Of a stretch of 64,000 nt of DNA, positions 26,390 through 56,099 are shown piece by piece (the first letter of the stretch is position 1; each line of letters starts with the position of its first letter). This DNA is from a bacterium (GTDB taxonomy: Bacteria > Hinthialibacterota > Hinthialibacteria > Hinthialibacterales > Hinthialibacteraceae): contig CAXXMV010000002.1 of the NCBI GenBank assembly GCA_963662285.2, forward strand, positions 1,784,150-1,848,149. Reading direction: 5' to 3'. The position numbers were made by a program, and so were the translations under genes. Below the pieces are notes generated by a model that saw only the letters and a program-made list of their open reading frames with translations, had not been told where the DNA came from and made no database searches.

Positions 26390-28165
26390 ATGAGGATTAT
26401 TTTTGTTATTTCAGCGCTATTGGTATCTTTCAATTTGACGGTAATTGCCCAGAATATAAATACTACTGATAATTTTCCCGACCCGAATTTCAAGGCTTTT
26501 GTGGAAGATATTATGAAGGTTCAGAAAGGTGGAGAATTCACCGCAGCTGATGCGGCAGAACATTCGGCCCTGATTTTTAATTGTAATAATAAAAGAATAG
26601 AGGATTTAACAGGAATCGAATATTTCAAAAAAATCGAGGAACTGGATTTTTCATATAATCAGATAACTAATGTTGATTTATCATCAAATAAATCTCTAAC
26701 ATCATTGACTTGTTATAATAATCAATTGGAGGGATTGGATGTAACCTCAAATACGATTTTGAAGTCTATAACCTGTTACAAAAATAAATTGAAGGAACTG
26801 GATTTATCTCACAACAAGGATTTGACATCATTATCATGTGGTCTAAACATGTTGGCCACTATGGATGTATCAAACAACCCGGAACTTAGTTATTTGTCTT
26901 GCTTCAATAATAAGATATCCAAGTTGGATTTATCATCTAATACGGCTTTGACATCCTTGCTTTGTTACAATAATCAATTAACCGAACTGGATACGTCATC
27001 TAACCCGTCTTTAGAAATCTTGCATTGTAGTAATAACCTGCTGCAGAATTTGGATTTATCATCTAACGGGGATTTAACTGAATTATGGTGTCACCGTAAC
27101 CAGTTGAAGACCCTGAATCTTCCCCCTAATACGGATTTAGTATATCTGCTATGTGATGATAATCAATTAACGGAACTGGATGTATCGGGCAACACGGCAT
27201 TGGAAAAATTTGATTGTTCATATAACCAGTTAACGCAGCTGGATGTATCGTCCAATACAGCGCTGACAAAATTATCCTGCGGCGCCAACCAATTGACATC
27301 ATTGGATATTACCAATAACAAGGCTTTGCGCTATGCGTCGTGCGGCAATAATCAACTGACGGAGTTGGATGTATCGGCCAACAAGGAATTAGTGGATTTG
27401 AATTGTTACAACAACCAATTAACCAATCTTGATTTATCCTCAAATGAGTATTTATCCTGGCTGCATTGTCAACATAACCAGTTAACCGGATTGGATGTTT
27501 CGTTCAATCCCATATTAAAAGGTCTGATGTGCAATCATAATAAGTTATCGCAAATAGATTTCTCCATGAACGGTCTAATGTTTTGGCTGAATTGCGCTAA
27601 TAACCTTTTAAGGGAATTGCCTTTGTCATCAATCATTAACTTGCACTGGCTGTATTGCGAAAATAATTTATTGACAGAATTGGATTTGTCGTTATCCCTT
27701 AATTTACAAAGAGTGATATGCCATAACAACCAATTAACCGAGCTGGATTCATCTAATATCAGACACCTGATTTGGCTGGATTGCCATGACAATCTGTTAT
27801 CCGAACTGGATGTTTCATCGCAGGTGAATCTGAGCAGATTGATTTGCCATAACAACCAATTGGCAGAATTGAATTTGAAGAATAATACTTTTCTTCGGTT
27901 TTTGGATTGTAAAAATAACCAAATCAATGATATTACAAGTTTTCATTCTATACGTGATTTGAGGGCTGCAAATCTTTCATACAACAACCTCGATTATGGA
28001 GATCGAAACGATATTCAATTGCTCAAAAATCATTTGGGCGATCCCGCCTTTTCTGACACTGTAACTGATTGGTTGATATACGGCCTGGAGTATTCTCCAC
28101 AGAATAATATCGATCCTTATGAACTGGATACAAACGTTTATGATTGGATGCTGCATGAGGAGTAG
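26390..28165 (+). CDS. Secreted IRREKO-type (21-aa) leucine-rich repeat protein with C-terminal tag
   Basis: aaggag RBS, signal peptide, FPDPNF cap, about 20 LxxLxCxxNQLxxLDxSxN repeats, ends TNVYDWMLHEE. Confidence 0.9.
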   Translation: MRIIFVISALLVSFNLTVIAQNINTTDNFPDPNFKAFVEDIMKVQKGGEFTAADAAEHSALIFNCNNKRIEDLTGIEYFKKIEELDFSYNQITNVDLSSNKSLTSLTCYNNQLEGLDVTSNTILKSITCYKNKLKELDLSHNKDLTSLSCGLNMLATMDVSNNPELSYLSCFNNKISKLDLSSNTALTSLLCYNNQLTELDTSSNPSLEILHCSNNLLQNLDLSSNGDLTELWCHRNQLKTLNLPPNTDLVYLLCDDNQLTELDVSGNTALEKFDCSYNQLTQLDVSSNTALTKLSCGANQLTSLDITNNKALRYASCGNNQLTELDVSANKELVDLNCYNNQLTNLDLSSNEYLSWLHCQHNQLTGLDVSFNPILKGLMCNHNKLSQIDFSMNGLMFWLNCANNLLRELPLSSIINLHWLYCENNLLTELDLSLSLNLQRVICHNNQLTELDSSNIRHLIWLDCHDNLLSELDVSSQVNLSRLICHNNQLAELNLKNNTFLRFLDCKNNQINDITSFHSIRDLRAANLSYNNLDYGDRNDIQLLKNHLGDPAFSDTVTDWLIYGLEYSPQNNIDPYELDTNVYDWMLHEE

Positions 28166-28211
28166 TGATTCTCCAATATATATTAATACAAAATTTTAGG
28201 AGTATTACTTA

Positions 28212-30320
28212 ATGAAACCTGTTATAGGAATTATTGTGGTGTTTCTTACTTTAAACGTGAATGGCTTTGCTCAGAATATCAATACGACTGAAAATTTTCC
28301 AGATGCCAATTTTAAGTCTTATGTTGAACAATATATGGGAATTAATTCAGGTGGAGTATTTACAGCAGCAGAAGCGTATGTCATGACCGACTATTTTAAT
28401 TGTGAAGGAAAAGAGATAAGTGATTTAAGTGGAATAGGTTATTTTAAGAATATAACTAACCTGAATTGCTACAATAACAAATTATCGTTACTGGATGTGT
28501 CGACCAACACAGCTTTGACTACTTTATCATGTGGAAATAACCAGTTAACGGAGCTGGATATATCGTCCAATACGGCTTTGACTCATTTATTGTGTGGCAA
28601 TAACCAGTTATCAGAGCTGGATGTATTTAATAACAAAAGATTGACTTTTTTAAATTGTAGATATAACCAATTAAGCGAAATAGATGTGTCATCCAATACG
28701 GCTTTGACTTCTTTATCGTGTGGAGATAATCAGTTAACAAATTTGGAATTGTCATCCAACTCTGCATTGGCTGCATTATCATGTGAAGAAAATGTGTTGA
28801 AGGAATTGGATATATCGTTTAATACTGTTTTGAATAAGGTGAATTGTAATAATAACCAGTTAGCGGAATTGGATGTGTCGTCAAACACGGTATTGTCTTC
28901 CTTGTCGTGTGAAGATAACCAGATAACTGGACTGGATATATCGTCAGCGACAGGATTAATATACTTGAATTGCGGTTGTAACCAATTGAAGGAATTGAAT
29001 GTATCGACTAACACCGATTTGGAAAAATTGTATTGCTTTAAAAATCAGATAGCAGTACTGGATACTTCGTTCAATGAATATTTGTATTTGCTGGATTGCT
29101 ATGATAATGAATTAAGTGAACTGACTTTATCGTGCAACAGAGCTTTAACATATTTAAATTGCTCTCAAAACATGTTAAAGGATTTGGACTTAAGGTTTAA
29201 CATAGAATTGCGTAGGTTGTATTGTCATAATAACCAAATATCTGATATATCAAGTTGGGCATCCCATCCTAATATTAAAATCGTAGACGTAAGGAATAAC
29301 AGCCTGGATAATGGTGATTGGGCGGATATAAGATTGATGCTAAATCTATTGGGAGATCCTGCGTTTAATAATGAGAGGCTTGTATCTGGATTTGCTTATT
29401 CTCCTCAAGATTATTTTGATCCCAATGATTTAGTAAATATCAATACAATGGAAAACTTTCCTGATGCAAATTTCAAGGATTATGTTGAAATATATATGGG
29501 AGTTGCTCCAGGTGGACAATTTACCACTGCAGAAGCTGCATCAAAAACAATTGAATTTTTTAATTGTAGTAAAAAAGAAATAAAGGATTTATCTGGAATT
29601 GAGTATTTTGTGAATTTACAACCTCTATATTGTAATGATAATCCGTTAACCATGATGGATTTGTCGTCTAACACGGCTTTGACTTTTTTATCATGCGAAA
29701 ATTGTCAGTTAACGGTTTTGGATGTATCGTCAAATACGGCTTTGGAATCATTGTATTGCCACTATAACCAATTATCAGTTTTAGATATATCGCAGAATAA
29801 GGCTTTGGATTCATTGGTTTGCTCAAATAACCGGTTAATTGAGCTGGATGTGACTTCTAATCGGGATTTGACTTTTTTATCGTGTGAAGATAATCAGTTA
29901 AAAGTTCTGGATGTATCGTATAACACATTTTTGGAAATATTGGTTTGCTCAAATAACCGGTTAGTTGAACTGGATGTGACGGCTTGCAAGAATTTACATT
30001 CTTTAAGATGCGACAGTAACAAGATATCGCAAATCGATTTGTCAAATAATAATAATTTAAAAATATTTGATTGTAATAATAACCAAATACAAGATATATC
30101 AAGTTTGCTTTCTCTAAGTAATCTAATATCTGTAAATGTAATTAATAATAACCTGGATTATAGTGATTGGGATAATATACAATCACTGCTTGAAAAATTG
30201 GGATATCCAGATTTTTTAGATAATGGTAATCTTCGAGTTGGTTTGGCTTATTCTCCACAAAACAATTTCGATCCCTATGTACTTGATACCAGCGTTAAAA
30301 ATTGGATGTACCATGAATAA
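28212..30320 (+). CDS. Secreted LRR protein with two complete cap-LRR-cap modules and C-terminal tag
   Basis: NINTxENFPDANFK and AYSPQ each occur twice; ends TSVKNWMYHE. Confidence 0.9.
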   Translation: MKPVIGIIVVFLTLNVNGFAQNINTTENFPDANFKSYVEQYMGINSGGVFTAAEAYVMTDYFNCEGKEISDLSGIGYFKNITNLNCYNNKLSLLDVSTNTALTTLSCGNNQLTELDISSNTALTHLLCGNNQLSELDVFNNKRLTFLNCRYNQLSEIDVSSNTALTSLSCGDNQLTNLELSSNSALAALSCEENVLKELDISFNTVLNKVNCNNNQLAELDVSSNTVLSSLSCEDNQITGLDISSATGLIYLNCGCNQLKELNVSTNTDLEKLYCFKNQIAVLDTSFNEYLYLLDCYDNELSELTLSCNRALTYLNCSQNMLKDLDLRFNIELRRLYCHNNQISDISSWASHPNIKIVDVRNNSLDNGDWADIRLMLNLLGDPAFNNERLVSGFAYSPQDYFDPNDLVNINTMENFPDANFKDYVEIYMGVAPGGQFTTAEAASKTIEFFNCSKKEIKDLSGIEYFVNLQPLYCNDNPLTMMDLSSNTALTFLSCENCQLTVLDVSSNTALESLYCHYNQLSVLDISQNKALDSLVCSNNRLIELDVTSNRDLTFLSCEDNQLKVLDVSYNTFLEILVCSNNRLVELDVTACKNLHSLRCDSNKISQIDLSNNNNLKIFDCNNNQIQDISSLLSLSNLISVNVINNNLDYSDWDNIQSLLEKLGYPDFLDNGNLRVGLAYSPQNNFDPYVLDTSVKNWMYHE

Positions 30321-30396
30321 ATCGGTAATCCAGCGAAGTAGATGTTACAAAGCGCCAGCATGTACCATCAAAGCCACTGATGAATCAGCGGAATAG

Positions 30397-30479
30397 TCCC
30401 ATCAGGTCCATGCCGCCACCCAAAATCCCTCTCTCAAGACTGGGAGAGGCCAGGTGATAGTTGGATAACCGCCACCCTA
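30397..30479 (+). repeat. ~83-bp imperfect direct repeat, right copy
   Basis: Matches 26098-26180. Confidence 0.85.
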
Positions 30480-30708
30480 ATTCACAGTATCATTTGATAT
30501 AACATCTATAACTTCAACCATTTGGCAGTGGTCTGATTAACGCTTCTGCATCTAAAATAAGACTTGCCACCCATGCGTAAGTGGGTTAGAGTAGTCAAAC
30601 AGAGGCAAATATCATGGAAACCTTCTGTGCATATTTTGGCAAACTTGAATATCTTGGTGAAAAATGCAATACTTTGTTGATTCAATATATAAAAGGAGAA
30701 GGTGTACA

Positions 30709-33552
30709 ATGATTGCTACAACTCCAGTTCGTTATTTGGCATCTATTCGGGCGTTACAGATCAGGATTCTATTCCTGGCGGGGTTCTTAATTTCACTCTC
30801 TGCTGTTACGGCTTCGGCCGGGGATGTGATGATCGACTTCAATTCCTTGGGGTCATACCTGGGTAAGAATACATTCAACTATCAGGGATTCCAATGGGTT
30901 AATTTCGCGAGCGGTCCCGGGTATTACGGGAATCCCGGACGGGACGTATATACTGGAAACACCTATCATGATTCCTATACGATTAGATGGCTCGGAAGCA
31001 ATAATTATTTTTTAAAGAGTATGCAAATATGTTGGTTCCTGCCGAATACGTCGCAACCAGTTGCCGTATTCACGGGATATCGCGACGGAGCGCAGGTATA
31101 CACAAAATCGGTTGCCCTAAGCGGTTATAGATCATTTAAGACGCTCAGTTTTAATTGGCTGGTTGACACAATAGTAATCACGGGCAACCGGGGCAACAAC
31201 TCCGGCGACATGAACGGCGTTGCGATTGATATCGATAATTTTTCCTATCGCGATCTAAGCGATAATAAGGCCCCGGTGATCAGCCAAGGCGATTCGACTA
31301 CAGTCGACATGTCTGAGGATGGATCCCCAACACTCTTCAGCCTTACACTGAACGCCGCAGATCCCGAAGGGGACGCGATCAACTGGAGTCTCGCTTCGCC
31401 CGCCGCCCATGGCGCAGCCGAAGTCAATGGCTCAGGCGCCAATATATCTGTCAAATACACGCCGAACGCCAACTACAACGGCGACGACAGTTTTCAAGTT
31501 CGCGCGGATGACGGCTTTGAAGCCTGGGACACGATTACCGTTCAGGTAAATATCGCTGCCGAGCAGGATGCGCCTGACGCTGTGGATGACCAGATTTCAA
31601 TCCCCGCAAACGCATCCGCAACGATTCCTGTGCTCGATAACGATTCCGATATCGATGGGGATACGCTTACGATTCAGACATTTACTCAGGGCGTATACGG
31701 ACGAGTTTCCATAGATGGGACAAATCTGATTTACACAGCTAATCCCTTTCACCGGGGAGCCGATGAATTCACCTATACAATACAGGATGGTAATGAAGGC
31801 GTCGACACGGCTACTGTGTTTGTGGATGTCACCGCGCCTGTTTTCAATATCATGGCGTCTCTGCCGAAAACCGGTATTGTGGAGAATTATGGCCGGGAAG
31901 TGAATAACGGAGTGCTGTTGGCCCTGGAAGACATCAACAATCAGGGCGCAATGCATTTGGATCTGCAAATTGAGGACAATGAAAGTTCCTTAACGAATGA
32001 GGAGGACTCGTTCAATGCGGCAACCGGCAACCAGGAAATACTGGCGGTTGTGGGAGGAGTTATTTCGGCTCATGCGCTTGAGATGGGCAAGATCGCCAGC
32101 AACATGGAATTGCCCCTCTTTTCGCCTACGGCGACTTCCCAGATCCTCAATTCCAGCCAATACAATCAATATGTGATCAAAATTTCGCCGCTGGATAATT
32201 ATCAAATCGAGGCGGTTCTATCTCAATTGGAAAGTTTGAACATACAGAAAATCGTCCTGCTCAACGAAGACTCCCCCTATGGAGAAGGATTCTATGATGG
32301 GCTTTCCGCCGCGGAGGAAACGATCCAAGTACTCGAGCATTATGCCTTTCCTTATGGTGAATTGGACTTGGAGACGGCGATTCCTATTATTCGGGATGCC
32401 AGCGTTGCGGGCGCCCAAATCGGCGTAATCGCCGCCTATGATCAGGATGCCAATCGCTTATTGAAACGGCTGTCCGAAATCCCGGAATTGATGAATTTCG
32501 GCTGGATTATGACCGATGGGGCGGCCATAGAAGCGACGCTCGAGGAGTTGCCGTTCGATAATGAACTCTATGTTCCCCGGTTATATGGCCTGACTCCCAG
32601 CATTGCGGATAATTTGGATAAATCGCAAGATTTCAAATCGAAATTCGTAGCTCAGTTTTCCGAAAAACCCGAATGGCTTTCGTATTATGGATACGATTCC
32701 CTGATGGCTTGCGCGGCCGCGCTGAATCGGGCGACGGAACAAACCCGGGCGGGTATTTGGGATGCCATCAGCAATCTACAATATGATGGAGCAACTGGAC
32801 AAAAATGGTTCGATGAGAAGGGATTGCTTCAAAGCGCCGTTTATGATGTTAAAAAAGTGATCAACGGCGAATTTGTAATTTTGAGCGAATTACGGGTAAA
32901 ACAGCCGGGCGTACAAAACTCTTCCGCCGGGAAGGTGCAAACCAGATCGATGGAGCCATTGAACGGTGAATCCGATCTCCTTTTCGAGGGATTCAGATAC
33001 ACGCTGCCGGGCGCCGATCAACATATCGGCCATATAGCGGGCGGCGCAGGGCCGGATGGCTCGTGGATCGCCCAGTCGCGGGATTATAACGAGGGCCAGG
33101 TTCTGATGGCGTTTTATGAAGACGCCGTGCGGGGACTGACAGACAATGGCGAGCCTTTCGGTTTTCAAGATGGGATTACTTATAATCTAGCCTTCGATAT
33201 GAACCGTACAACTGTGGTAAGACAAGTACCGTCGGGCGATTCCATTTTGGAGGTGAAAGTCACCTTGGTGTGCCGGTATCGTGATGGAAACGGTGTTCAG
33301 CGTTTCGCCAACAAAGACCTGGTTGAAAAGGCTGTAACCTTTGCAGAATGGCCGCAGGAAGGCCCGTTTCTGCTGGATATACCGGTTCCCTACAGTTCAG
33401 TGGCCCCCGTCGGCGCCGATTACGCCGCTGAGGATCAACTGTTGAATTGGGAAATCAGCCTATTAAATGCCGCACATCAGGCAATCACCCTGAAATCCGT
33501 ATCCATCATCCAGGGGGATACAACGGATATCAAAAATTACATGCTGTATTAA
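30709..33552 (+). CDS. Secreted modular protein: beta domain, two cadherin/Big_9-like Ig domains, type I (LivJ-like) periplasmic-binding domain, C-terminal domain and tag
   Basis: aaggag RBS; YTPNANYNGDDSF, APDAVDD, VLDNDSDIDGD; GVLLALEDIN, FSPTATS, YGEG, YGYDS, YDGATG; ends TDIKNYMLY. Confidence 0.8.
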   Translation: MIATTPVRYLASIRALQIRILFLAGFLISLSAVTASAGDVMIDFNSLGSYLGKNTFNYQGFQWVNFASGPGYYGNPGRDVYTGNTYHDSYTIRWLGSNNYFLKSMQICWFLPNTSQPVAVFTGYRDGAQVYTKSVALSGYRSFKTLSFNWLVDTIVITGNRGNNSGDMNGVAIDIDNFSYRDLSDNKAPVISQGDSTTVDMSEDGSPTLFSLTLNAADPEGDAINWSLASPAAHGAAEVNGSGANISVKYTPNANYNGDDSFQVRADDGFEAWDTITVQVNIAAEQDAPDAVDDQISIPANASATIPVLDNDSDIDGDTLTIQTFTQGVYGRVSIDGTNLIYTANPFHRGADEFTYTIQDGNEGVDTATVFVDVTAPVFNIMASLPKTGIVENYGREVNNGVLLALEDINNQGAMHLDLQIEDNESSLTNEEDSFNAATGNQEILAVVGGVISAHALEMGKIASNMELPLFSPTATSQILNSSQYNQYVIKISPLDNYQIEAVLSQLESLNIQKIVLLNEDSPYGEGFYDGLSAAEETIQVLEHYAFPYGELDLETAIPIIRDASVAGAQIGVIAAYDQDANRLLKRLSEIPELMNFGWIMTDGAAIEATLEELPFDNELYVPRLYGLTPSIADNLDKSQDFKSKFVAQFSEKPEWLSYYGYDSLMACAAALNRATEQTRAGIWDAISNLQYDGATGQKWFDEKGLLQSAVYDVKKVINGEFVILSELRVKQPGVQNSSAGKVQTRSMEPLNGESDLLFEGFRYTLPGADQHIGHIAGGAGPDGSWIAQSRDYNEGQVLMAFYEDAVRGLTDNGEPFGFQDGITYNLAFDMNRTTVVRQVPSGDSILEVKVTLVCRYRDGNGVQRFANKDLVEKAVTFAEWPQEGPFLLDIPVPYSSVAPVGADYAAEDQLLNWEISLLNAAHQAITLKSVSIIQGDTTDIKNYMLY

Positions 33553-34625: not shown

Positions 34626-37600
34626 TTAATGAATTGGCGTTGGCAGCGAATCGCGATCGAAAAAGATCATGGATTGATCGCAGGGTTTGTTCCATTCATC
34701 CAACGGATTGGTGAATTGGGCCCGGTCGAGAGCGCCGCGGTTCTGATATTCGGCGAAGACTTCATCAGTCAAGATATCTATGAATGAAACTTTCTTTACG
34801 CCGCGCGGAGTTGTGATGTATGTGTAGATATCGCAATGATACAAGAACGGGAGGTCGGCGGATGCGCCGATCAACGTTCCTTCCTTGATGGTATCGCCTT
34901 CTCGTATGCTTGGAACGACATCGATATGTTCAATGGCGACGATGACCGAAGGGACGTCCAAAGAACGTAAATACAGTCCACCGTTCTGATATCCGCTTTC
35001 CATCGCTGTCCGGTAATAGATCAATTCGCAATCGAAAGGCGCGTAGATTTCTGGTTTATGACTCAACGCGTCTTCAATTCGTGAAAAATAGTAATGTTTT
35101 TGCTTTCCTGCGTAATTGAAATCGTCAGGAACTGGCGGATGTCCGCAGATCGAAGCGATTTTGGATATCCCCTCTATACGATCCAAGTTGGCGATATTGT
35201 GGTTGGCGAAATGGGGAATCCCTTGATTGAAATAATCGAAGATATAATCACCTCCCCGGTCTTCGGCGAATTCATCGGGGAGATATGTAATACGTTTAAT
35301 ATACAGAGGAGACTGATTTTCTACGTGAATCAATTGAACGCCTTTGTCGCTTCTCATCCTCATCGTCTCAAGGAAGTTGGATGAGACGATAGGTTGAATT
35401 GAACCATCCGAACCGCAGAATCTACCTTCACCTTCTGCGCGATATTCGACATCAAAAACGTGACTGGGGCGTTGTTTGTATGCGATAGTGACGGCGGGGC
35501 CATATAGGATAAAATTATCCACTTGCCTTGATTGCGACCAAGGTATTTTCACTTCCATTTCGCCATCGCCATCAAGATCGACGATATCCAGCAAGACTTT
35601 TTCATCTTGGTCGTTCAGGCCACAACTGATCGTAAACGGCCCGCATTCAATCCGTTCCAAGCCGGTTTGTGGTTCGGTGAAATAATCGGAGAAGGAAATG
35701 GTGACAAGATCACTGGGTGAATATTGATATTCCTGATTTGGAGGAAAATCGGCTTCAGTCACCCAGTCACCGATGGTATCCAATTGCGAATACCAGCCGC
35801 CATTGCAGGTCAATGGATTTTGATCTCTCTCTTCTTTCGAAATTACGAACCGATCCTTATGAACGTTTCCGAATTGACGAAAATACCCATAATCGTCTTT
35901 TATTCTTGGATCGCACTTAAGGAGAGAGACGTATCTTACACCCGTCAGTGTATTAACATGTACGGCGATGTCCATGTCTTTGGGGATGATTCCTGGTTCG
36001 GTATCAGAAATATGAATGTAACCGAGAGGATCTCCGGCTTCAAAATAATCGCCGACTTTAATACCGGCATCCAAATCGATATGAGAGATGATTACTCGAT
36101 AGCCTTGATTGTATACCGAAGAGAAGGATATCTGTACATCCTCCAAAGCGTTGGGATTAGCCGGGTCGAATGGAGTGATATCCGTGACGATGCCTCCGCC
36201 GAAAAGAGGCGATAAGACTCTCACTTCGCCGGGAGAGCGATATTCCGGCTTGACGGAGAAATAATGTTTCATGGTCCGGCAGGATTCGAAATCGTCGGAG
36301 TAGTCGTTGACGACTCCGGCGCGGAACTTGGAAATTCCCCAGATTTTGTCGTATTCAACCAACCAACGGGCCTCGATAAATGGAAACTCGCCAATTTCAT
36401 CATAGGGATCCGTTTCGTAGTCTTGGGGATATTGCATAACGTATTCCTGATTGCTCCAGGCGATTTTTTTAACCAATAAATCTTTGCAATAGAATCGTAT
36501 GGTAGAAATGCCGTATTGATTCGATAGTGTGATGATTTGATAATCCACGGAGCCTCGTTTCGTCGATAACGACGTGAATATGTCCCCCGTAGGCAAGTTC
36601 GGGAAATCTAATCCATTGGTCCAGGTTTCAATCCGTATGTCGTAAGATGATTGAACTAAAAATTGCGCAACAGTCGGCGCTTCATTAGTGAAACGCCATT
36701 CCACGAGATGATTCAGACCGTCCGACACTCGAAATGAAAATGGAATTGACAGTTCTTTTTTCCCATCATTATCGCCGTCGACGATCGACAGAGGAACATC
36801 CCTGCGTTGTGACGAGATGTAAAAATGGTTGCATTCAAACTGGGTATAGGAGTCCATTGGTCCGGCAACATCCTCGTCAAAGTCAAATACAGTAAAATTG
36901 GGATTGTCGAATCGGGGATAGTCGGGTAAATCTTGCGCTGTTACCTCACGTTTAGGTGTCAATGTGGGCTGAATCGGAGTTGGTTGCACAGTTGGAGTAG
37001 ATGTCGGTGTGAGTGTATTTTGAGAAACGGGAGTATGACCTTGATTTGGAGTATTCCCTGGTACCGGTGTGACTTCATGAATGTCATTCATATAAAAGCC
37101 GATTTGTTTAATGTAAAAATCCTCACCGAAGATATGTATCCAGCGTACGCCGAATTCTGGTTCGAAGACAATCCATTCTTCAATAAAGTCCGATGAACTC
37201 TGTGTGGTATAATCAGATTTGGAGATGTTTCCGAGCGGCGAGTATAAATTAAACTGAATGGAATCGCGGTGTGCGACCAGAAAGCGCAATTTGTTGAACG
37301 TCATATTCAGTTCGAGACCCTGATAGCCGTTGAGATTAGGAGCCGCTTTTTTGACATGGATTTCCACCTCGCCATCCTGATCGAAATCGACGATATCCAT
37401 ATCCGCACCGGACGCGTCGGAGGAGGTGTACCAAAACGAACCGTCTTTAATGTTGGAAAGTCTAAAATCAAACCGGGTGCGTCCTTGAGCCGATGTGTCG
37501 TAGAAATCACCGGGTTTGATGTAGATAACGTCATTTAACCATACTGGTGGTTGGGTGGGTGAGGGTAATGGAGTGTGAGTCGGGGGCGGTGGCGAAGGTT

Positions 37601-46428: not shown

Positions 46429-48066
46429 TTAATACAAACTCCACTGACCGACGCTCGTGTTTTCAACTACGGAAGAAACGACAAAATTGTCGAAAGCGAT
46501 TCCTCCGGTGTCGCCAACATCAGTACCGGCATTAACCCAACCAAAGAGTCCTACCTGTCCGGCGGCATGCGTATCGTCTTCAACAACTGCATGAATCTCA
46601 TCGTCAAACAGCAGATAGAAAACATTTCCTTTTATAATAACTTGGAATTTCTGCCATACATTCAAGACTTCATCATAATCTTCGGCATGAAGTTCTGATC
46701 GGGTTCCTCCAGAATACAGAATCATATCCAAACCGGCATTAACAAATTGCCATGAATAAAAATTGTTTATGTCTGTACCCCGGAAAACGATTCCCCAATC
46801 AGCGTCTGCAACAAATCCCATTCCTTGCACCGTGATGGCAATATCTGTTAGATCGGGATCTCCTGTAAGCGAAACCAGCGGGCCGCCGGCATCTTCATAT
46901 TCGACAAAATAGCCGTCTTCATTCACATCCCAGAATCCGGCTAAATCTTCCCAGTCATCATATTGGCTGGCATCGTCAAAATCGAAGGAGAATATTTCTT
47001 CTCCAACAGTAAGATTGAAATAGTATATGTTGGACGGTCCTTTAATTTCTGAGGAACCGTCGCCACCTGACCATTTGGCGCCATAACCTGTAACCGACGG
47101 ATCGTAATCCGCTGGCGCCGTCACTTTGTAGGTTAACTTAGAGGCTCCTGGATTAGCTGAGTAATTCCAGGTTATTACGCCGCCGCTATCCGTTCCGCCA
47201 TCGCTTATGTCGCTGATGACAAATCCAGCCGGGACTGTTTCTGTAATGGTTAGATCAGTTGCTGAACCTCCCGAATAAAAAATGTCCAGCGCTGCATTAA
47301 CTGTCTGTCCTCCTACAAATGTGATCGCATCCAACGAACGGGTGATATTGGTGATAGGCGGCGCCTCTTCGAGTACAACATTGTCCACTTCAGCGATTGC
47401 CAGAAAATCATTATCGTCATGATTGGTGATTGCCAATCCATAAGCAACGCTGTCGGCCCATCCATCTATTGTTGTGCTATGGGCGATGATCCATTCGTCG
47501 CCATCATAAGAATATTCAGATAAGAACATGCCGATAGCAGAAACCCGTGTTACGCGAAGCCAGATTCCATCACCAGTAGCTTCGACCGCAATTGTGTTAT
47601 CAGGAGCATCTTCAAAAATCTGAACGTCGCTCGATCCTCCGCCTTCATTGACTCGCCATTGCGCGTCGATCTGGTCGCCATAGTCCGCGCCGCGCAGATC
47701 TAGAGAGTAATGGCTAGATTCGGGCATTGCGGGTTTGTTGCGAATTGAAACCCCGATCTTCGCCCATTCGTTTGCGCCTGGATCAATCCAGCTCACGCGG
47801 GCGGATAGACGCCAGTCACCGGTTTTTTCAGTGTAAACGAAAAAACCTTCATCGTCATTGCCCCAAATGTCATCTCCGTTGCCTTCGATTGTATAGATGC
47901 CATCTTCTTCGACGACGCTGCCCGCGACTTTGGTAGTTCCCCTTGGATTGTCAGGCGAATACCAATCCACCGCATTATCAAAAATACCATACTGAGCGAA
48001 CGCTGGACTACCCATAATCAGCAACGCCATACTCATTAAACCCCATAAAACAATTTTTCTGTGCAT
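46429..48066 (-). CDS. Secreted acidic protein with two ConA/LamG-like domains around an Ig-like domain, with C-terminal tag
   Basis: Signal peptide ending AFA; GDDIWGNDDEGFFVY, WAKIGV, WLRVTR, GQVGLF, FDNFVV; ends TSVGQWSLY. Confidence 0.75.
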   Translation of the reverse strand: MHRKIVLWGLMSMALLIMGSPAFAQYGIFDNAVDWYSPDNPRGTTKVAGSVVEEDGIYTIEGNGDDIWGNDDEGFFVYTEKTGDWRLSARVSWIDPGANEWAKIGVSIRNKPAMPESSHYSLDLRGADYGDQIDAQWRVNEGGGSSDVQIFEDAPDNTIAVEATGDGIWLRVTRVSAIGMFLSEYSYDGDEWIIAHSTTIDGWADSVAYGLAITNHDDNDFLAIAEVDNVVLEEAPPITNITRSLDAITFVGGQTVNAALDIFYSGGSATDLTITETVPAGFVISDISDGGTDSGGVITWNYSANPGASKLTYKVTAPADYDPSVTGYGAKWSGGDGSSEIKGPSNIYYFNLTVGEEIFSFDFDDASQYDDWEDLAGFWDVNEDGYFVEYEDAGGPLVSLTGDPDLTDIAITVQGMGFVADADWGIVFRGTDINNFYSWQFVNAGLDMILYSGGTRSELHAEDYDEVLNVWQKFQVIIKGNVFYLLFDDEIHAVVEDDTHAAGQVGLFGWVNAGTDVGDTGGIAFDNFVVSSVVENTSVGQWSLY

Positions 48067-49718: not shown

Positions 49719-49728
49719 GTTGCAGAAC

Positions 49729-49824
49729 GTATCCGGTGGATCGCGTTTTATGACCCACCGGATCAAACTGTTTTTGATGCATAATTTTATACAAAAAAAT
49801 GGTTGGTGATGGCGGTCACCAACC
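49729..49824 (+). repeat. Hairpins downstream of pfkA (REP-like and/or terminator)
   Basis: atccggtgg...ccaccggat and ggttggtga-tggcgg-tcaccaacc. Confidence 0.5.
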
Positions 49825-50113: not shown

Positions 50114-51607
50114 CTAATATATTTCCCAACCTGCAACGGCTGATGGTTCGCCAATTTGGAATTCAATGCCGTTAATTGTCCATAATCCATCTGAAAGAGT
50201 CTCCAGTGGTTCGTCGAAATAGAATTCAAAACTGCTTGTTCCTGCATCAATGTTATCACTCAGAACGTATCTGTTAGCCGAACTGTCCACGGCCGGGTCA
50301 TATAATGGACTAAGGACTACTAGTAATTGAGTTCCTCCAATAAATGGTTCGGCGAATGACACTTTGACGTAATCATATGTGATTTCATCGATTGTGAGGA
50401 ACTGGCCTTTGATGGTTATTTCAATCTCAAAGGGAATCATGGTGTTGCCCGCGTCGTCTCCTGCGCCAGAGAGTTGCAGTAGCCATTGACCTGGTGACAG
50501 ATTCTCTTTTGGATATACCCAATGCCAGCCGAATTCACGGGATTGTTTTATTTTGTGGAATTCGTCGAAAATATCGACATCGTATTGATGTAGGTAATCG
50601 GGATCGACGCTCGATTCGGTAGTCAATCCTTCCGGCCATAAGCAATTCCATCCGAAATATCCGCCATCCACTTCGATGCCGGAAACAGACGTCCCGTCAG
50701 GATCCTGTTGCTTGATATACTTGACTTGAAGAATAGAGACTTGCTCTTCAGAAGCGACTGGAGTAAATCCTCCTGCGCTGTTACTCATTTCTCCGTCGGA
50801 ATCAATTATCTGCATTGGTTCATCAAATGCAAAGCGCATAACGCCCGTTGGGTAGTCTGAATACTCACCAAGTCCTTGCACCATTAATTCACGGTAAACA
50901 ATTGTAGGTTGGCGTACATCTTCGGTTAGAGTAATATCTTGTGTAGCGGTGATTTCACCTAAGGGTTGGTCGAATTGATCAGTGAGACCTTCAACAACCA
51001 AACGAATGGGATTGAAGCGGGCATCCCAATAGTTATAACCGGTTTCTGAAGTATTAAGCAATCTGGTCCAGTCGACGGTCAATTCCAAAATGTAACTTTT
51101 GTATAGTCCTAATTTAAAATCGTCATCTTTTCCACAGGCGTTGGTTCCAAGGAAGATGATTCCTTTTTTTTCTGGATTTAACTCACCACCAGGAACCAGA
51201 GGCAGCATTTCTTCAGGAGTAGAATTATCCCATTTTCCGCTGATTTGACCCAAGCATCCTTCGCCATAAGGATCGTCGTTATTGTTATCAGGTACAATGA
51301 TTACGAATTCCGCATTATCCGGTTTGACTGATTTACTGAAAATCGCTATGAATTGTTCAACGGATTCATTTGCGCCGTCAATGTCCCGGCTGAAATCTCC
51401 ATCGTTGTACCAGATCAGACTTGTGGTTGCTGCTTGTTGAGCATTACCCAATGTTTGATGGCTGCTTGTTTTGCTATGTTGCTCATGGAATATATCATCG
51501 AAACCGACTTCCTCGGCTGCATGAGAATATATTCCGAGTCCCAATACGATGGCGGCTAGAAATAAAAGCATACATGTTTTTCTAACCAGTTTTTCTGTTT
51601 TCTTCAT
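50114..51607 (-). CDS. Secreted acidic beta-rich hypothetical protein with C-terminal tag
   Basis: AGGAG RBS, signal peptide, His-containing N-terminus (FHEQHSKTSSH), ends SAVAGWEIY. Confidence 0.8.
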   Translation of the reverse strand: MKKTEKLVRKTCMLLFLAAIVLGLGIYSHAAEEVGFDDIFHEQHSKTSSHQTLGNAQQAATTSLIWYNDGDFSRDIDGANESVEQFIAIFSKSVKPDNAEFVIIVPDNNNDDPYGEGCLGQISGKWDNSTPEEMLPLVPGGELNPEKKGIIFLGTNACGKDDDFKLGLYKSYILELTVDWTRLLNTSETGYNYWDARFNPIRLVVEGLTDQFDQPLGEITATQDITLTEDVRQPTIVYRELMVQGLGEYSDYPTGVMRFAFDEPMQIIDSDGEMSNSAGGFTPVASEEQVSILQVKYIKQQDPDGTSVSGIEVDGGYFGWNCLWPEGLTTESSVDPDYLHQYDVDIFDEFHKIKQSREFGWHWVYPKENLSPGQWLLQLSGAGDDAGNTMIPFEIEITIKGQFLTIDEITYDYVKVSFAEPFIGGTQLLVVLSPLYDPAVDSSANRYVLSDNIDAGTSSFEFYFDEPLETLSDGLWTINGIEFQIGEPSAVAGWEIY

Positions 51608-51720
51608 TTTAATTCTCCTATATTGATTAGGTTATTTTGCCAGCAATATGCTAAACAAAATTGAATACTGCTATTGATACTGCGTTGGGGATTCAGGGGA
51701 TAATAATTCCAAGGATATTT

Positions 51721-52308
51721 TCATGGTCCCCACAGAACGATGTCGCCATAAGAGACGATGCCATTGGTTACGTCATATGGAAAAGCATCATTTCGTTCCT
51801 TGTTTGGGCCATGACTCCTGATATTCCATTTGTAATTGGAGAAAGATACATTAAACTTGATGGAATTGAAGAAAATCCATTGATCTAATAGTAATCCCTC
51901 TTCATCTGTTGCTGCGGTGTAGCGGTAGTAGAGATCTGGTGACTTGGTTCTATTGCACAAGCATTCAGAAAAATCCTCTAAATCTCCTGGAGCGAAGGGA
52001 TCATAAGGACAGAGTGATAAAAATGAAATTGGAGTAGTTAATTCATGAAGTCGTGGATTGTGAGGTACATTGCCGCTATGAGGATACATGTTGTAATCCA
52101 TATGATAGGATTCCAATGCATGTCTTTGGGAATGTAGTTCCTCTTTTACCCGCGCTATCTTGGCCCGGATTTGTGCTCCATAAAAATTTGGTACAGCAAT
52201 AGCTGCAAGAATTCCAATAATTGCAACAACGATTAGTAACTCAATCAATGTAAATCCATGTTGATATAAAGGATGATCTTTTGATGAATGATTTGTAGTG
52301 TTTATCAT
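51721..52308 (-). CDS. GspG-like pseudopilin / type IV pilin-like protein
   Basis: G|FTLIELLIVVAIIGILAAIAVPNF prepilin site; LESYHMDYNMYP; SHGP; YDVTNG..SYGDI. Confidence 0.9.
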   Translation of the reverse strand: MINTTNHSSKDHPLYQHGFTLIELLIVVAIIGILAAIAVPNFYGAQIRAKIARVKEELHSQRHALESYHMDYNMYPHSGNVPHNPRLHELTTPISFLSLCPYDPFAPGDLEDFSECLCNRTKSPDLYYRYTAATDEEGLLLDQWIFFNSIKFNVSFSNYKWNIRSHGPNKERNDAFPYDVTNGIVSYGDIVLWGP

Positions 52309-52350
52309 CGTATTGGTCTTTCGGTTTTGTAGCGTTGAAATATAAGAATG

Positions 52351-53082
52351 TTATTTGATATTCTTGAGTAGTTCTCTGAATGATTTCCTCAACATGTTCG
52401 CCGATTCTTTCAAATTACTAGTATTCTTTTCTTGGACTGCATTCTCCATATTGTTTAAAGCTTTTCTTGCGCGTTGAATCAAAAAAGTTCTTTTCTGATT
52501 TTCTTTTTCTTCCAAACCTTTGGACATAGTCTCAAGAAGGCTTAAAATATTAGAAGCTCGATTGATTGAGTCAGAACCTGTCGCCCATTGCTCATCAGAA
52601 TACTTTGTGGCTGGCTGGCTATGGCGTCCCATGTGCATGGCGGGATGAAATGCTTCATGAAAAATCCAAAGGAAATCGTTAGAACAAATGTATCCTTTGG
52701 ATAATCGCATTCCTGCTAATTGGAGCCGCAATAATTCGAGTGATTCATGAACTCTATGAACCTCATACTTGGTACTAACGTGCGAAGAAATTTTCTGCAT
52801 GTAATCAGATAATTTCTTGATCTCCTTATACGAAAAAACCGGATTCTTTTTTCCCTTGATCTCAACCAGGGCATCGGCCATATTTTTTTCAATATCTTTG
52901 AGAGCGTTAAGTACTTTTGGTTTATCTGTTACCGGAACGCCGCAACCTGTAGAGAGAATTGCCGTCTGTAATGGTTCATTTAATGAACACAGAGGAACGC
53001 ATTCTGTTGCGTATGTATTTATGGTGAATATAGAGAAACTCAATAAACTTAATAAACTTGATAAAAAACTATTCGGCAGCAT
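52351..53082 (-). CDS. Exported helical His/Cys-containing hypothetical protein
   Basis: Signal peptide; HRVHES and FHEAFHPAMHMGRH. Confidence 0.7.
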   Translation of the reverse strand: MLPNSFLSSLLSLLSFSIFTINTYATECVPLCSLNEPLQTAILSTGCGVPVTDKPKVLNALKDIEKNMADALVEIKGKKNPVFSYKEIKKLSDYMQKISSHVSTKYEVHRVHESLELLRLQLAGMRLSKGYICSNDFLWIFHEAFHPAMHMGRHSQPATKYSDEQWATGSDSINRASNILSLLETMSKGLEEKENQKRTFLIQRARKALNNMENAVQEKNTSNLKESANMLRKSFRELLKNIK

Positions 53083-53110
53083 ATTTTTAAGCCTTTCAAA
53101 TTGCCTTATA

Positions 53111-53170
53111 ATCCAGAAGAGTTCTAACCTTAGATGATTGAAAACGAAAATACATAGAACTCTTCTGGAT
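53111..53170. promoter_or_regulatory. Perfect 16-bp inverted repeat inside the putative operon
   Basis: atccagaagagttcta-N28-tagaactcttctggat. Confidence 0.6.
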
Positions 53171-53198
53171 ATTTAGTGGCATATACTGAATTTCTAAT

Positions 53199-54095
53199 TT
53201 ATTTGGTATTCGTAATATCCCCAGCGGTTTCCACCAACCACTGAACCAAATTGGGATCGGGTAGAAAAGCGCGTTCGGAGAAGACTACATCTAGTTTGCT
53301 TAATGCTTTTCCCATGTGTTTTCCCGATTGTTTAATTACCCGGTCATGGATACTTTTCGGGGAAAGCGAGACGTACAAACCGATTACCAGAACCCGTTTT
53401 TTATAGTCCGATGCATGGTTGATGGTTGGGACGCCTTGGTTTGCATAACTTTGGCCAACCTCTACAAATGACCAGTCAGCGTATTCGATGCCCGTTTTGG
53501 CGCAGATGTAGTTAGCCGTGCGCCGCGCCAGGTTTTCCCAGGTTCCCTGGATGCCGTGGTCGCCGTGCAGCAGAATAACGACCGCTTCTTCTTCAGGGTT
53601 GGTTGATATCTCTTTGACTCTCTGTACCGCCGATTTCAGCAACAGGTCGCCTTCCGACAGGGGCGGTCCCATAACGATGGGCACGGTATCCGGGGCGATT
53701 TCGGCGCCTTCTTCTTTCAGTACTTCCAGGATTGATTTACTGGCGTACTGACCCAGGACGGCTGGGATATCGAAGATTACGTGAGAGGAATGAGTGATGA
53801 ATAGCGGCATTGCCGTAATTTTTTTGCATCCGGCGTCGATCAGTTCTTTTACTCCGGTCGCCGCTGAAGGTTCCTTGAATTCCAGGTTGACCACTTTGGA
53901 TGCTATGAATGGCGTTTCATTATTTTTGATATACTCATCAATCCCGTTTTGCAGTTGCGTCATGGGTTGATTCCATGAGGGGCTGGGTGAGCCATGCACT
54001 ACAACCAAAAGTCCGGCGTTTCCGCCATCGGCCATTGCGGTGATAGAACAAAGGCATAAAATGCCAATTGTCATAATACTGAGCGTCTTCTTCAT
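53199..54095 (-). CDS. CbiX/SirB-like class II chelatase with export signal peptide
   Basis: MKKTLSIMTIGILCLCSITAMA; VVVHGS, LEFKEPS, PLFITHSSH, LLHGD, PDPNLVQW. Confidence 0.8.
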   Translation of the reverse strand: MKKTLSIMTIGILCLCSITAMADGGNAGLLVVVHGSPSPSWNQPMTQLQNGIDEYIKNNETPFIASKVVNLEFKEPSAATGVKELIDAGCKKITAMPLFITHSSHVIFDIPAVLGQYASKSILEVLKEEGAEIAPDTVPIVMGPPLSEGDLLLKSAVQRVKEISTNPEEEAVVILLHGDHGIQGTWENLARRTANYICAKTGIEYADWSFVEVGQSYANQGVPTINHASDYKKRVLVIGLYVSLSPKSIHDRVIKQSGKHMGKALSKLDVVFSERAFLPDPNLVQWLVETAGDITNTK

Positions 54096-54152
54096 TTGTT
54101 GGTCTCTACTTTCGTGTTTTGATATTTATAAAACGTGCTGCGTATTCGTGAA

Positions 54153-54749
54153 TTAATTCCAACCTCCAGTCATGCCCCCGCCTTCATAACGGATAATATC
54201 TCCAGATGAAAATAGTCCATTTGTAGCAAGGTAATAATTGTGGCCGCCATTGAAATGGTGATCGGGGCCGCGGCTTTTAAGGACGTATCCTTTACTGCTC
54301 ATATTGAAATTCACTTGTGAGAAGGCTTTGAAACTGGTGTAATCGTAAGGCCAGTAGCCAGTTTCACGATCCGCTCCGTCATACATAATTCCACTGCATA
54401 TTCCCGGCGAAAAAATATCCTGGGGAATGCCGCCCATGTATGAACAAGGCGTGGTTATCACTTTTAGTTCATACCGATTCTGTTCCCAACTGCCATACTC
54501 TTTAACTGGCGGAGGGGAAGAGTTAGTTTCCCAGCGGCATAAGTAAAAGTAGGGGTAGTTGTTGTTATCCACCCGGTATAGTTCCATGGCGGCGCAAATA
54601 TTGGTCAGGTCGGCTTGCGCCCGCGCCACCTTGGATCTGATCTGCGCGGATAGAAAATTGGGTATGGCGATTGACGCCAGTATGCCGATAATCGCCACCA
54701 CAATCAGTAACTCGATTAGTGTAAAACCTTTGGGGTATTTACGGTTCAT
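54153..54749 (-). CDS. GspG-like pseudopilin / type IV pilin-like protein
   Basis: KG|FTLIELLIVVAIIGILASIAIPNF; MELYRVDNNNYP; SRGPD; TNGLFSSGDI. Confidence 0.9.
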   Translation of the reverse strand: MNRKYPKGFTLIELLIVVAIIGILASIAIPNFLSAQIRSKVARAQADLTNICAAMELYRVDNNNYPYFYLCRWETNSSPPPVKEYGSWEQNRYELKVITTPCSYMGGIPQDIFSPGICSGIMYDGADRETGYWPYDYTSFKAFSQVNFNMSSKGYVLKSRGPDHHFNGGHNYYLATNGLFSSGDIIRYEGGGMTGGWN

Positions 54750-54773
54750 AATACTTTTCCTTACGATGGAATT

Positions 54774-56099
54774 TTAGTAAATCGACCAGTCATATACGGG
54801 TGTGGTTTCGTTCCCGGCGACCATCATCCGACTGAACCAAACCGCCCCGCCATCGCTGTAATTGGAATCGCCTGACTGTATTTTTAATACCAGATTATTA
54901 GGAGCATCATGCCAGACGTTACCTTCTTCATTGGCTTGATCTCCATCTACTGATACTGTTAATTTATCAAGCGTCTTGTTGAAGATAATTCTATGCCACC
55001 CCTGCGAACGGGCAGTTTCATGTGATTGGCCATGTCCCGTGAGATGAGTCGCGGCGTAGTAATTAGTTGATACGTTATTCATCAGGATCGAATACATCTG
55101 GACGCGAAGGTATTCCTCGGGATTATTAGCGTTGTAAAGCGCTACGATATTTTTGTATCGTCCTGTCTCGTAATATGGATCCCAAAACCAGAGTTCTATC
55201 GTTCCTTGTTCAACATTCCAGGGAGTGCTTAATTCCATATCTGATGCAGTGAAACGGCTAGCCTGAGTTGTTTGGGGAAGCGGGATAAACATGTCGTCTA
55301 TGGCGTTGTTAAATTCAATATCCGTTCCTGTTGAAGCCGTAAGCCAATCTGGAATGGTATCCATTGTTGAAGAGAACATTTTGGGCATGACGCTGATATC
55401 GTCCCACTGCATGATTTGAGCATCGCCGCCGCGGGTGAGATACCAGCCTGAACGGCATAGTAGTTCTATATGAGCTAAAGGCGTTGTCACTTCGTTGTCT
55501 GCGAAACTTCCATTTACGCTGACCGTAGCTATACCGTTGTCCAATAAAAACGAGGCTTGGTTCCATGATTGGGTGACGCGGGGAATACTTTCGGAAGAGA
55601 TGATATCTGTACCAAAGTAAACGCCCATAGCGTTGGCATCTGAGGGATTGCAAACATAATATGTATTGATTAGGTCGCTGCCGTGGCCGGTTTTTTGGCC
55701 TTTTAAGTCAACTGTCAAAAAATCTGCAGGCCATCCTTTAAATGATTCATCATCTTCTTTCGAGCGTAGTCGAATAGAATTTGAGTTTGGGCCATTATAT
55801 CCATCATCCTTGAACCAGATGGTGACAATTCCTTCGGCTATTCCCAGTTCCCGGTATGCGCCATCCCAGGATTGATCAAGATAAACTGATGTCGTGTTAT
55901 TGAATCCAGCGTTATCAACGGTCTGCTCAAATTTTTGGGTTAATCCATAATCCGATCCCCGGTCTATACCTGTAAAACCGAAGAGAGGCGCGCCATCTTC
56001 AAAATCCTCGATCCAACCTTGAGCGGAAATATTTGTTGTCAGTACCAGAACGGTAATGATAAAATAAGTCGTTCGTAGTAAATGCAGTTGAATGTTCAT
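54774..56099 (-). CDS. Secreted protein with two LamG/ConA-like domains and C-terminal tag
   Basis: AAGGAG RBS, signal peptide; GIVTIWFKD/GTIELWFWD and SWNQ/GWHR paired repeats; ends TPVYDWSIY. Confidence 0.78.
   Translation of the reverse strand: MNIQLHLLRTTYFIITVLVLTTNISAQGWIEDFEDGAPLFGFTGIDRGSDYGLTQKFEQTVDNAGFNNTTSVYLDQSWDGAYRELGIAEGIVTIWFKDDGYNGPNSNSIRLRSKEDDESFKGWPADFLTVDLKGQKTGHGSDLINTYYVCNPSDANAMGVYFGTDIISSESIPRVTQSWNQASFLLDNGIATVSVNGSFADNEVTTPLAHIELLCRSGWYLTRGGDAQIMQWDDISVMPKMFSSTMDTIPDWLTASTGTDIEFNNAIDDMFIPLPQTTQASRFTASDMELSTPWNVEQGTIELWFWDPYYETGRYKNIVALYNANNPEEYLRVQMYSILMNNVSTNYYAATHLTGHGQSHETARSQGWHRIIFNKTLDKLTVSVDGDQANEEGNVWHDAPNNLVLKIQSGDSNYSDGGAVWFSRMMVAGNETTPVYDWSIY

Follow-up and report, generated by a model that had tools for sequence, protein, structure and literature searches.

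Exported proteins of a bacterium in the phylum Hinthialibacterota share a short C-terminal tail that is probably a lineage-specific sorting tag for the cell surface or exterior. The tail came to notice in a 64,000-nucleotide stretch of the genome (GenBank assembly GCA_963662285.2, contig CAXXMV010000002.1, positions 1,784,150–1,848,149 of the forward strand; hereafter the window, whose own numbering is used below), where an earlier note made from the letters alone described six such proteins. The shared tail is confirmed, and it is found far outside the window too. Its consensus is (P/G/E)-T-x-V-x-[D/N]-W-x-[L/I/M]-[Y/F/H], placed at the very end of the protein or followed by one polar residue, and 183 genes, ∼4% of the proteome, carry it.

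All six tails of the earlier note are present in the translated genes of the window. On the plus strand, an exported leucine-rich repeat (LRR) protein of 591 amino acids (aa), read from the ATG at 26390 (26390..28165; Pfam LRR_4), ends in TNVYDWMLH plus two trailing residues (TNVYDWMLHEE, 28130–28165, stop included) and scores 24.9 bits with the 12-residue tail profile described below. Its paralogue, an exported two-module LRR protein of 702 aa (28212..30320; Pfam LRR_4; 20.4 bits), ends in TSVKNWMYH plus one trailing E (TSVKNWMYHE, 30288–30320). The third plus-strand carrier (30664..33552; 19.2 bits) joins Big_9/cadherin-like repeats to a periplasmic-binding-protein domain (Pfam ANF_receptor/Peripla_BP_6) and ends in TDIKNYMLY (33523–33552). 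On the minus strand, two exported proteins of 545 aa (46429..48066; 23.1 bits) and 497 aa (50114..51607; 23.3 bits), neither with a Pfam family, end in TSVGQWSLY (46429–46458) and SAVAGWEIY (50114–50143), respectively. The last, a 441-aa exported protein (54774..56099, minus strand; 26.4 bits), is a tandem ConA/LamG/galectin-like beta-sandwich according to its AlphaFold model, and ends in TPVYDWSIY (54774–54803). Three of the six proteins have no Pfam family at E ≤ 0.001, one of them showing only a below-cut-off SpaA_4 match (E 0.005).

In agreement with the earlier note, which took all six for signal-peptide proteins, their N-termini begin with basic residues and continue into a hydrophobic stretch, as in Sec signal peptides. 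Two further observations from the window bear out the note's picture of a tag on the true ends of exported proteins. Among the 41 genes called in the window, the six tails score 19.2–26.4 bits and the other 35 genes score at most 0.0 bits, so that no cytoplasmic protein of the window carries the tail. Moreover, the first of the two LRR modules in the protein 28212–30320 closes with AYSPQDYFDPNDLV at residue ∼410, bears no tag and continues directly into the second module; the second module ends AYSPQNNFDPYVLD and is then followed by the tail.

Genome-wide scans give the same picture on a larger scale. The genome (7.29 Mb in 8 contigs, 92.5% complete) was represented by 7509 stop-to-stop open reading frames (ORFs) of at least 120 aa, with 2.52 million residues, and by 4867 non-overlapping genes, with 2.03 million positions. 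In the ORF set, the regular expression of the earlier note matches 84 C-termini (0–2 residues from the end) as against 34 other places. We then used a 12-residue position matrix, built genome-wide and iterated to convergence, with a threshold of 12 bits. The scores of C-termini under this profile are bimodal: 186 C-termini in the ORF set reach at least 12 bits, and the maximum among 12000 random internal positions is 10.0 bits. These 186 C-termini comprise 151 that end at the aromatic residue of the motif, 34 that end one residue further on and one that ends two residues further on. A scan of every position in the gene set returned 221 matches, of which 186 lie within three residues of a protein end and 35 are internal, a roughly 500-fold C-terminal enrichment. 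Chance is excluded as the origin of the tails.

The 183 tagged genes of the gene set show which positions are constrained. Counting back from the last residue of the motif, position −1 is Y (107), F (36) or H (26), together 169 of 183, and position −2 is L (111) or I (38), with L, I, M and V together accounting for 173. Tryptophan occupies position −4 in 168 proteins, with F in 10 and Y in four. Position −3 is variable (S 56, M 41, E 37), and position −5 is D (65), N (42) or E (26). Further forward, position −7 is V (133) or I (40) and position −9 is T (119), V (30) or S (24), and P, G or E is frequent just ahead of the motif. In 149 of the 183 nothing follows the motif; one residue trails it in 33 and two residues in one, and these trailing residues are mostly polar (E 13, N 5, R 5, D 4). 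The tail codons vary between copies, which argues for selection on the peptide and not on a DNA repeat.

Tail carriers are overwhelmingly exported proteins. A rough secretion classifier, based on an n-region, an h-region and an AXA-like site with no further hydrophobic segment, assigns 1371 of the 4867 genes to the secreted class and 858 to the membrane class, and detects no signal peptide in the other 2638. The tail is found on 155 of the secreted proteins (∼one in nine), six of the membrane proteins and 22 of those without a detected signal peptide. It is therefore far more frequent in signal-peptide than in cytoplasmic proteins (secreted versus no signal peptide, odds ratio 15, p = 2e-51), as the earlier note had expected of a secretion tag. 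Most of the 22 tagged proteins in the last class show a signal peptide by eye that the classifier missed. In all, 161 of the 183 have a predicted signal peptide or an N-terminal hydrophobic region, which sets them apart from type I secretion substrates, whose C-terminal signal comes without an N-terminal signal peptide. Tagged proteins show no enrichment of lipobox-like sites (9/172 versus 171/1866). By type, the carriers are mostly adhesin-, lectin-, lyase-, phosphatase-, kinase- and cytochrome-like. One of the 22 (G000:C3:377292) has a twin-arginine-like signal, RRSFF, and the tail may for this reason extend beyond Sec substrates. As a separate observation, genes for TatC and TatA lie inside the window (22039–23702, minus strand).

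The tail is attached to many unrelated folds. The 120 residues upstream of it fall into 116 BLAST clusters across the 183 proteins, 87 of them singletons. For a Pfam scan of the last 330 residues we sampled 60 of the 183, namely one protein from each of the 29 multi-member clusters and 31 random singletons. Among these representatives, the tail stands within about 10–35 residues of the end of complete or near-complete unrelated domains. Profile ends reached before the tail include those of CotH (322/322), Y_phosphatase3 (240/240), FGE-sulfatase (254/255), 3keto-disac_hyd (186/187) and Beta-lactamase (322/329); Laminin_G_3, ANF_receptor, Cohesin, CBM9, FG-GAP and LRR domains also precede it. 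Thirty of the 60 C-terminal regions match no Pfam family, and no Pfam or NCBIfam family covers the tail itself in the six window proteins, nor does any Pfam family in the 60 C-terminal regions.

Structure prediction separates the tail from the domain in front of it. In the AlphaFold model of the 54774–56099 protein (7 sequences, mean predicted local distance difference test (pLDDT) 75.6), the final strand of the domain stops at residue 428, the residues T-T-P-V form a short strand, and D-W-S-I-Y (residues 437–441) falls below pLDDT 50. In the model of the C-terminal half of a tagged CotH protein (51 sequences, mean pLDDT 87.1), the domain closes with a helix (residues 292–317, pLDDT 94–98) and the last ten residues fall to 55. 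The last ten residues have pLDDT 55–58 in both models, with the adjoining domains at 90 or above. As modelled, the tail is a flexible appendage after the last folded domain, whether that domain closes with a helix or with a strand.

These results bear on the simplest alternative, namely that the tail is no signal at all: it would be the final strand of a fold that the carriers have in common, or would reflect chance or composition. Such a strand is not without precedent here: a ConA-like final strand ([hydrophobic]-D-N-[hydrophobic]-x-[hydrophobic]) occurs a few residues before the tail in 16 of the 183 proteins, and several of the C-terminal regions are LamG, 3keto-disac_hyd or CBM9 sandwiches. 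However, the same tail follows alpha/beta and all-alpha ends (Beta-lactamase, Y_phosphatase3 and the CotH helix 292–317), its upstream regions form 116 clusters, it is detached and of low confidence in the models, and its matches are concentrated at C-termini. The diversity of clusters, the Pfam domains, the CotH model and the C-terminal enrichment together refute this explanation, which we regard as exceedingly improbable.

The tail is also conserved where the proteins around it have diverged. Seven orthologues of the 54774–56099 protein, at 35–80% identity, keep it, and V435 and W438 are invariant among them. For the CotH family, 51 homologues were found and the ends of 18 were read. Fifteen closer homologues (down to 37% identity) end in P-x-x-V-x-[DEQGNA]-W-x-x-[YFH] or near variants, some with one to three residues after the motif. 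Within the phylum, every CotH homologue has the ending LPxxVxDWx[LIV][YH]. Three distant homologues (36–37% identity) stop exactly where the tail would start, without any other C-terminal domain. In one CotH homologue (P0054), an extra lamin-tail module follows the CotH domain, and the tail sits at the new end.

To follow the tail across genomes we used a DNA pattern for the tail plus stop codon, T-x-V-x-[D/N]-W-x-[L/I/M]-[Y/H/F]-stop, with the reversed pattern as a control. The pattern has 31 matches in this genome and the control none. Within the phylum Hinthialibacterota, 32 of 35 genomes are positive, including all 18 whose completeness is 90% or more and whose contamination is 5% or less, and the control has a single match in all. 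Among 75 Sumerlaeota genomes, 33 are positive (22 with at least two matches and 11 with one) and 42 have none (control, 2 matches). A 400-kb sample of one pattern-negative Sumerlaeota genome still contained the variant tails FASVGDWSLY, YTAATDWSLYE and STAAHDWQLFQ; because of this, the tag is probably general in Sumerlaeota too, in lower numbers and with a looser front half. Five genomes from elsewhere (Omnitrophota, Zixibacteria, Pirellulaceae, Verrucomicrobiales and Ignavibacterium), each picked up through a chance match, have only one or two pattern matches apiece, the discovery match included, and these are only chance singletons.

A narrower pattern, applied to one genome per prokaryotic species, gave at least 115 loci. 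Among the matches listed, 53 close a long open frame: by the titles of their records, 16 are from Sumerlaeota, one from Hinthialibacteria, five from Omnitrophota (four of them from one record set), 29 from records labelled only 'bacterium', and one each from Gemmatimonadaceae and Chitinophagaceae. A further 61 of the listed matches, spread over Bacteroidota, Bacillota, Pseudomonadota and other groups, end frames no longer than 62 codons and resemble chance matches; one is ambiguous. As far as seen, the tag is restricted to two phyla, Hinthialibacterota and Sumerlaeota, a restriction that these surveys support, short of proof. To our knowledge, neither phylum has cultured members. Two proteins of this genome have their nearest named homologues in Candidatus Hinthialibacter, at 61% and 43% identity, in line with placing the genome in Hinthialibacterota (OLB16).

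The earlier note had called the tail a lineage-specific signal distinct from LPXTG, PEP-CTERM, GlyGly-CTERM and the C-terminal domain (CTD) of the type IX secretion system (T9SS), and the comparison with described sorting signals agrees, since no model fits. No CTERM-type NCBIfam family came up when the six window proteins were searched with hmmscan at E up to 1, a search in which HMMER filters may drop weak short matches. As far as titles and abstracts describe them, the tripartite CTERM signals (LPXTG/sortase, PEP-CTERM/exosortase, GlyGly-CTERM/rhombosortase, MYXO-CTERM/myxosortase) resemble the tail in being short C-terminal motifs, in marking dozens to hundreds of exported proteins per genome and in being limited to certain lineages. 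They differ in that the tail has no hydrophobic helix or basic cluster after its motif: the motif is the end, and with no more than one or two trailing residues there is no room for either. The main text of the description of Candidatus Hinthialibacter does not contain the words 'C-terminal', 'secretion' or 'sorting'. By title or abstract, the listed literature on Sumerlaeota C-termini includes nothing on protein sorting, and the listed papers on CTERM and sorting signals concern, by title or abstract, tripartite signals only.

T9SS cargo resembles the tagged proteins in some respects. As with the type A CTD of that system (TIGR04183/PF18962), the tail marks many unrelated Sec-exported surface or secreted proteins at the true C-terminus, the cargo is of the same kinds (lectin-like, beta-helix, CotH and adhesin-repeat proteins), and PorU-like C25 peptidases are conserved in the tag-bearing genomes. 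The T9SS CTD, however, is a folded domain of about 70–100 residues, with a 72-position model, and the tail is nine to ten flexible residues. TIGR04183 has no match in this genome, a weak zero given that the 14 control genomes gave none either, and PF18962 is not among the Pfam matches of the 60 tagged C-terminal regions. In Sumerlaeota, T9SS CTDs are nearly absent, with single weak matches in 10 of 75 genomes. The PorV, SprA and GldM/PorM models (NF033710, TIGR04189, TIGR03517) likewise have no match in this genome, which is 92.5% complete. The core machinery of the T9SS is likely absent from it.

Other known C-terminal signals share single features with the tail. The outer-membrane beta-signal, read by BamA, consists of alternating hydrophobic residues with a final aromatic in the terminal strand of a barrel. 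The tail has the C-terminal aromatic and hydrophobic residues among its last ten. It does not match the beta-signal, because its positions −3 (S/M/E) and −5 (D/N) are polar, so that the alternating pattern is missing, and because the preceding domains belong to soluble multi-domain proteins and not to barrels; 34 of the 183 proteins also have trailing residues. By analogy, the tail recalls the PTS1 tripeptide of eukaryotic peroxisomes, a very short linear C-terminal peptide that is carried by folded proteins of many families and read by the TPR receptor PEX5; the kingdom, compartment and motif differ, and we claim no homology. The TPR gene beside many of the longer C25 genes, described below, belongs to this analogy too. 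The tail appears to be undescribed, and it fails the defining features of every C-terminal sorting family tested.

A non-covalent retention peptide would need no processing at all: the tail would stay on the protein and use its Trp, Leu and Tyr to stick to outer-membrane lipid or lipopolysaccharide, a surface layer or a partner protein. Its aromatic, amphipathic character (seen at positions −4, −2 and −1) and its exposed, flexible state in the models suit such a role, and adhesins, lectins and enzymes of the types found among the carriers often act at the surface. The W-x-L core also recalls the WxL surface-anchoring domain of Gram-positive bacteria. That domain is a C-terminal module of about 150–200 residues with two W-x-L motifs, and it shares only this tripeptide with the tail; neither the WxL family nor any other common family occurs among the Pfam matches of the 60 tagged C-terminal regions. 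Nine residues are, moreover, few for specific glycan or lipid binding, and the invariance of T, V and D/N fits a protein groove better than unspecific membrane affinity. Retention of this kind is, in our judgement, unlikely.

We give still less weight to a stability or turnover signal, in which a periplasmic tail-specific or PDZ protease would read the tail as a degron or a protective cap. The placement of the motif at the very end of most carriers would suit such readers, and a short non-polar or aromatic C-terminus is what PDZ domains of the tail-specific and DegS types recognize. But a degron on 4% of the proteome, kept down to 35% identity and across two phyla, is hard to explain, and the trailing residues in 34 of 183 proteins misfit readers of a free carboxylate. 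The positions that a PDZ domain would read, 0 and −2, are here Y/F/H and the variable S/M/E, unlike the known Y-x-F type. A turnover signal is thus very improbable.

What best accounts for the distribution, conservation and carriers of the tail is probably an address label, which would send periplasmic intermediates on to the cell surface or exterior, or hold them at the surface. A dedicated factor would read the tail as a linear peptide. As preferred reader we propose two conserved C25 cysteine peptidases of PorU-like type. They would remove the tail and might then attach the protein to a surface glycan, much as PorU treats the cargo of the T9SS. Since the T9SS core was not found, outer-membrane crossing would proceed through one of the type II secretion system (T2SS)-like secretin systems of the genome. 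By analogy with PorU, the C25 pair is the leading candidate, although we hold this identification only tentatively.

Both C25 proteins of this genome are exported and combine Peptidase_C25 and CARDB domains with a PorU match. The longer (1831 aa; L001, G000:C8:485880-491375) aligns to positions 5–743 of the 1095-position PorU model, well past the catalytic domain, with 232 bits, and the shorter (1267 aa; L002, G000:C2:500515-504318) to positions 159–734 with 193 bits. Unlike PorU of the T9SS, both remain below the cut-off of 420 bits. PorU-like matches occur in all 35 Hinthialibacterota genomes (exactly two in 27 and one in eight), typically as proteins of ∼1820 and ∼1260 aa, and the C25 family is present in 73 of 75 Sumerlaeota genomes. 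The ∼1800-aa form is sharply bounded, with about 34 proteins at E < 1e-150 and the next at 6.5e-67. All 35 homologues examined retain the catalytic His motif Y-x-G-H-G; in the two copies of this genome, a Cys stands 39 and 41 residues downstream of it in a gingipain-like context.

The surroundings of the longer C25 gene offer a further lead. In eight of 12 loci, drawn from both phyla, it is followed by a TPR gene. These TPR genes take three forms unrelated by BLAST, and the TPR protein of this genome has no clear membrane anchor or signal peptide. In one family (L217, L218), the C25 and TPR genes are followed by a Wzy_C O-antigen-ligase-like gene and a GT4 gene. By analogy, this neighbourhood would fit a glycan-linked sortase, and we note it as a lead only.

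Several points weigh against this assignment, and some against sorting as such. The case for sorting, cleavage and surface location is built wholly on sequence. A tagged gene lies within 20 kb in only three of 14 C25 loci. C25 proteins also occur in many phyla that lack the tag; the link between peptidase and tail consists of co-presence and analogy, and the co-presence is weak for this very reason. Dividing Sumerlaeota into tag-bearing and tag-free genomes in order to profile candidate readers was dropped, because a pattern-negative genome need not be tag-free and C25 proteins are found in 73 of 75 regardless of the tag. The trailing residues (one in 33 proteins, two in one) make a reader that needs a free carboxylate at a fixed place unlikely. 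Finally, the zeros on which the absence of the T9SS is based are weak, as the SprA, GldM and CTD searches were silent in all 14 control genomes too and the genome itself is 92.5% complete.

A few features of C25 loci are recorded here as side observations. Many orthologues of the longer C25 protein share an I-P-C-[K/R/H]-like motif a few residues before the C-terminus. At L214:4471-5484 (G020:C12) in one relative, two paralogous beta-helix proteins follow the long C25 gene, one ending in ASVKNWSLF and the other untagged. In a single-contig Sumerlaeota genome (L213, G105:C1:588000-607999), the long C25 gene stands divergently beside two pilin-like genes, and two ORFs near G105:C1:610038-614903, within 20 kb of it, look by eye, from their N- and C-terminal sequence, like PilT-type and GspE-type ATPases.

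The main rival to the C25 peptidases as reader is docking to a T2SS or pilin component, which the earlier note had raised as a possibility. Here, the tail would be a linear docking signal for a T2SS-like machine, bound by a secretin, a GspC-like part or a pilin-like protein, with a pseudopilus pushing out or displaying the cargo. One part of that proposal, the association with pilin-like genes, is found genome-wide: 24 of 183 tagged genes have a pilin-like neighbour, against 79 of 1618 other signal-peptide genes (odds ratio 2.9, p = 6e-5), and such pairs are often co-oriented with short gaps, as at 54153–56099.

The window contains two of these pairs, both on the minus strand. A pilin-like gene (54153..54749) with a GFTLIEL prepilin N-terminal methylation motif sits 24 bases downstream of the tagged gene 54774–56099. 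A second (51721..52308) lies directly upstream of the tagged gene 50114–51607, which is itself the last of a minus-strand gene string containing two pilin-like genes. Both match Pfam N_methyl and, below cut-off, NCBIfam GspG/PilA N-terminal models, and clustering places the second in the same family as the first. In total, 114 genes of the genome have a prepilin motif (about 180–240 aa). Of these, 102 group together by BLAST: their N-terminus, FTLIELLIVVAIIGILAAIAVPNFLNAQIRAK, hardly varies, and they share a conserved C-terminal motif, SNGxxSxGDI, which might serve the tail as a common docking site.

Secretin systems are a second point in favour. The genome encodes eight secretins, a Tad system, and at least three clusters in which GspD-type N0/Secretin_N domains occur together with GspG, J, K, E and F and PilM/N/O. 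Pilin-like families are expanded in both tag-bearing phyla: a DNA assay for FTLIEL gives 28–208 matches per Hinthialibacterota genome (n = 35) and 10–131 per Sumerlaeota genome (n = 75). This expansion recalls the expanded prepilin-like families of Planctomycetes and Verrucomicrobia.

Other parts of the proposal fare less well. No pilin-like neighbour is found for 87% of the tagged genes, and pilin-like counts do not track tag counts across the 35 and 75 genomes. One Hinthialibacterota genome, for instance, has no tag match and 168 pilin matches, and among Sumerlaeota a genome with no tag match has 80 pilin matches and one with 12 tag matches has 58. We know of no linear T2SS signal. Weighing the neighbour excess against the missing neighbours and uncorrelated counts, we consider T2SS or pilin docking of the tail doubtful.

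A broader arrangement, which would accommodate either candidate reader, is a PTS1-like system in these two candidate phyla. The tail on folded, Sec-exported proteins would be recognized by a periplasmic or outer-membrane receptor and handed to a secretin (T2SS-like) channel or to PorU-like sortases that operate free of a T9SS. On present evidence this arrangement is conceivable yet rather speculative. If true, the tail would be the first linear signal to direct export across the second membrane in any diderm, and possibly a minimal relative or forerunner of the T9SS cargo signal.

Whichever factor reads it, a sorting tag of this kind would have several uses. It is easily recognized and can be followed with a simple DNA or peptide assay, and it provides a catalogue of probable surface and secreted proteins for both phyla, including adhesins, polysaccharide-active enzymes and outer cytochromes. 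The candidate readers form a short list open to tests with peptides and recombinant domains. For T2SS-type export, it is an open question how folded proteins are chosen to cross the outer membrane. Recognition by a secretin system would make the tail the first portable T2SS signal, which could be useful as a secretion tag; recognition by PorU-like peptidases would mean that sortase-type surface attachment exists outside the T9SS.

Several other genes deserve mention. An exported 1382-aa protein in the window (34626–38774, minus strand) matches no Pfam or NCBIfam family and has no tail. Between the two pilin-like and two tagged genes of the window lies a gene (53199–54095, minus strand) for a signal-peptide protein with a CbiX-like chelatase domain (Pfam CbiX; below-cut-off matches to NCBIfam sirohydrochlorin chelatases), an odd case of an exported member of a normally cytoplasmic tetrapyrrole-chelatase family. 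Among the secretin genes, one GspD-type secretin appears to be split, with an N0 plus Secretin_N ORF and a Secretin ORF 18 bases apart (L206:8049-10762; G000:C1:564048-566761), and two short secretin-domain-only genes stand in tandem at L211:8797-11107 (G000:C3:300296-302606).

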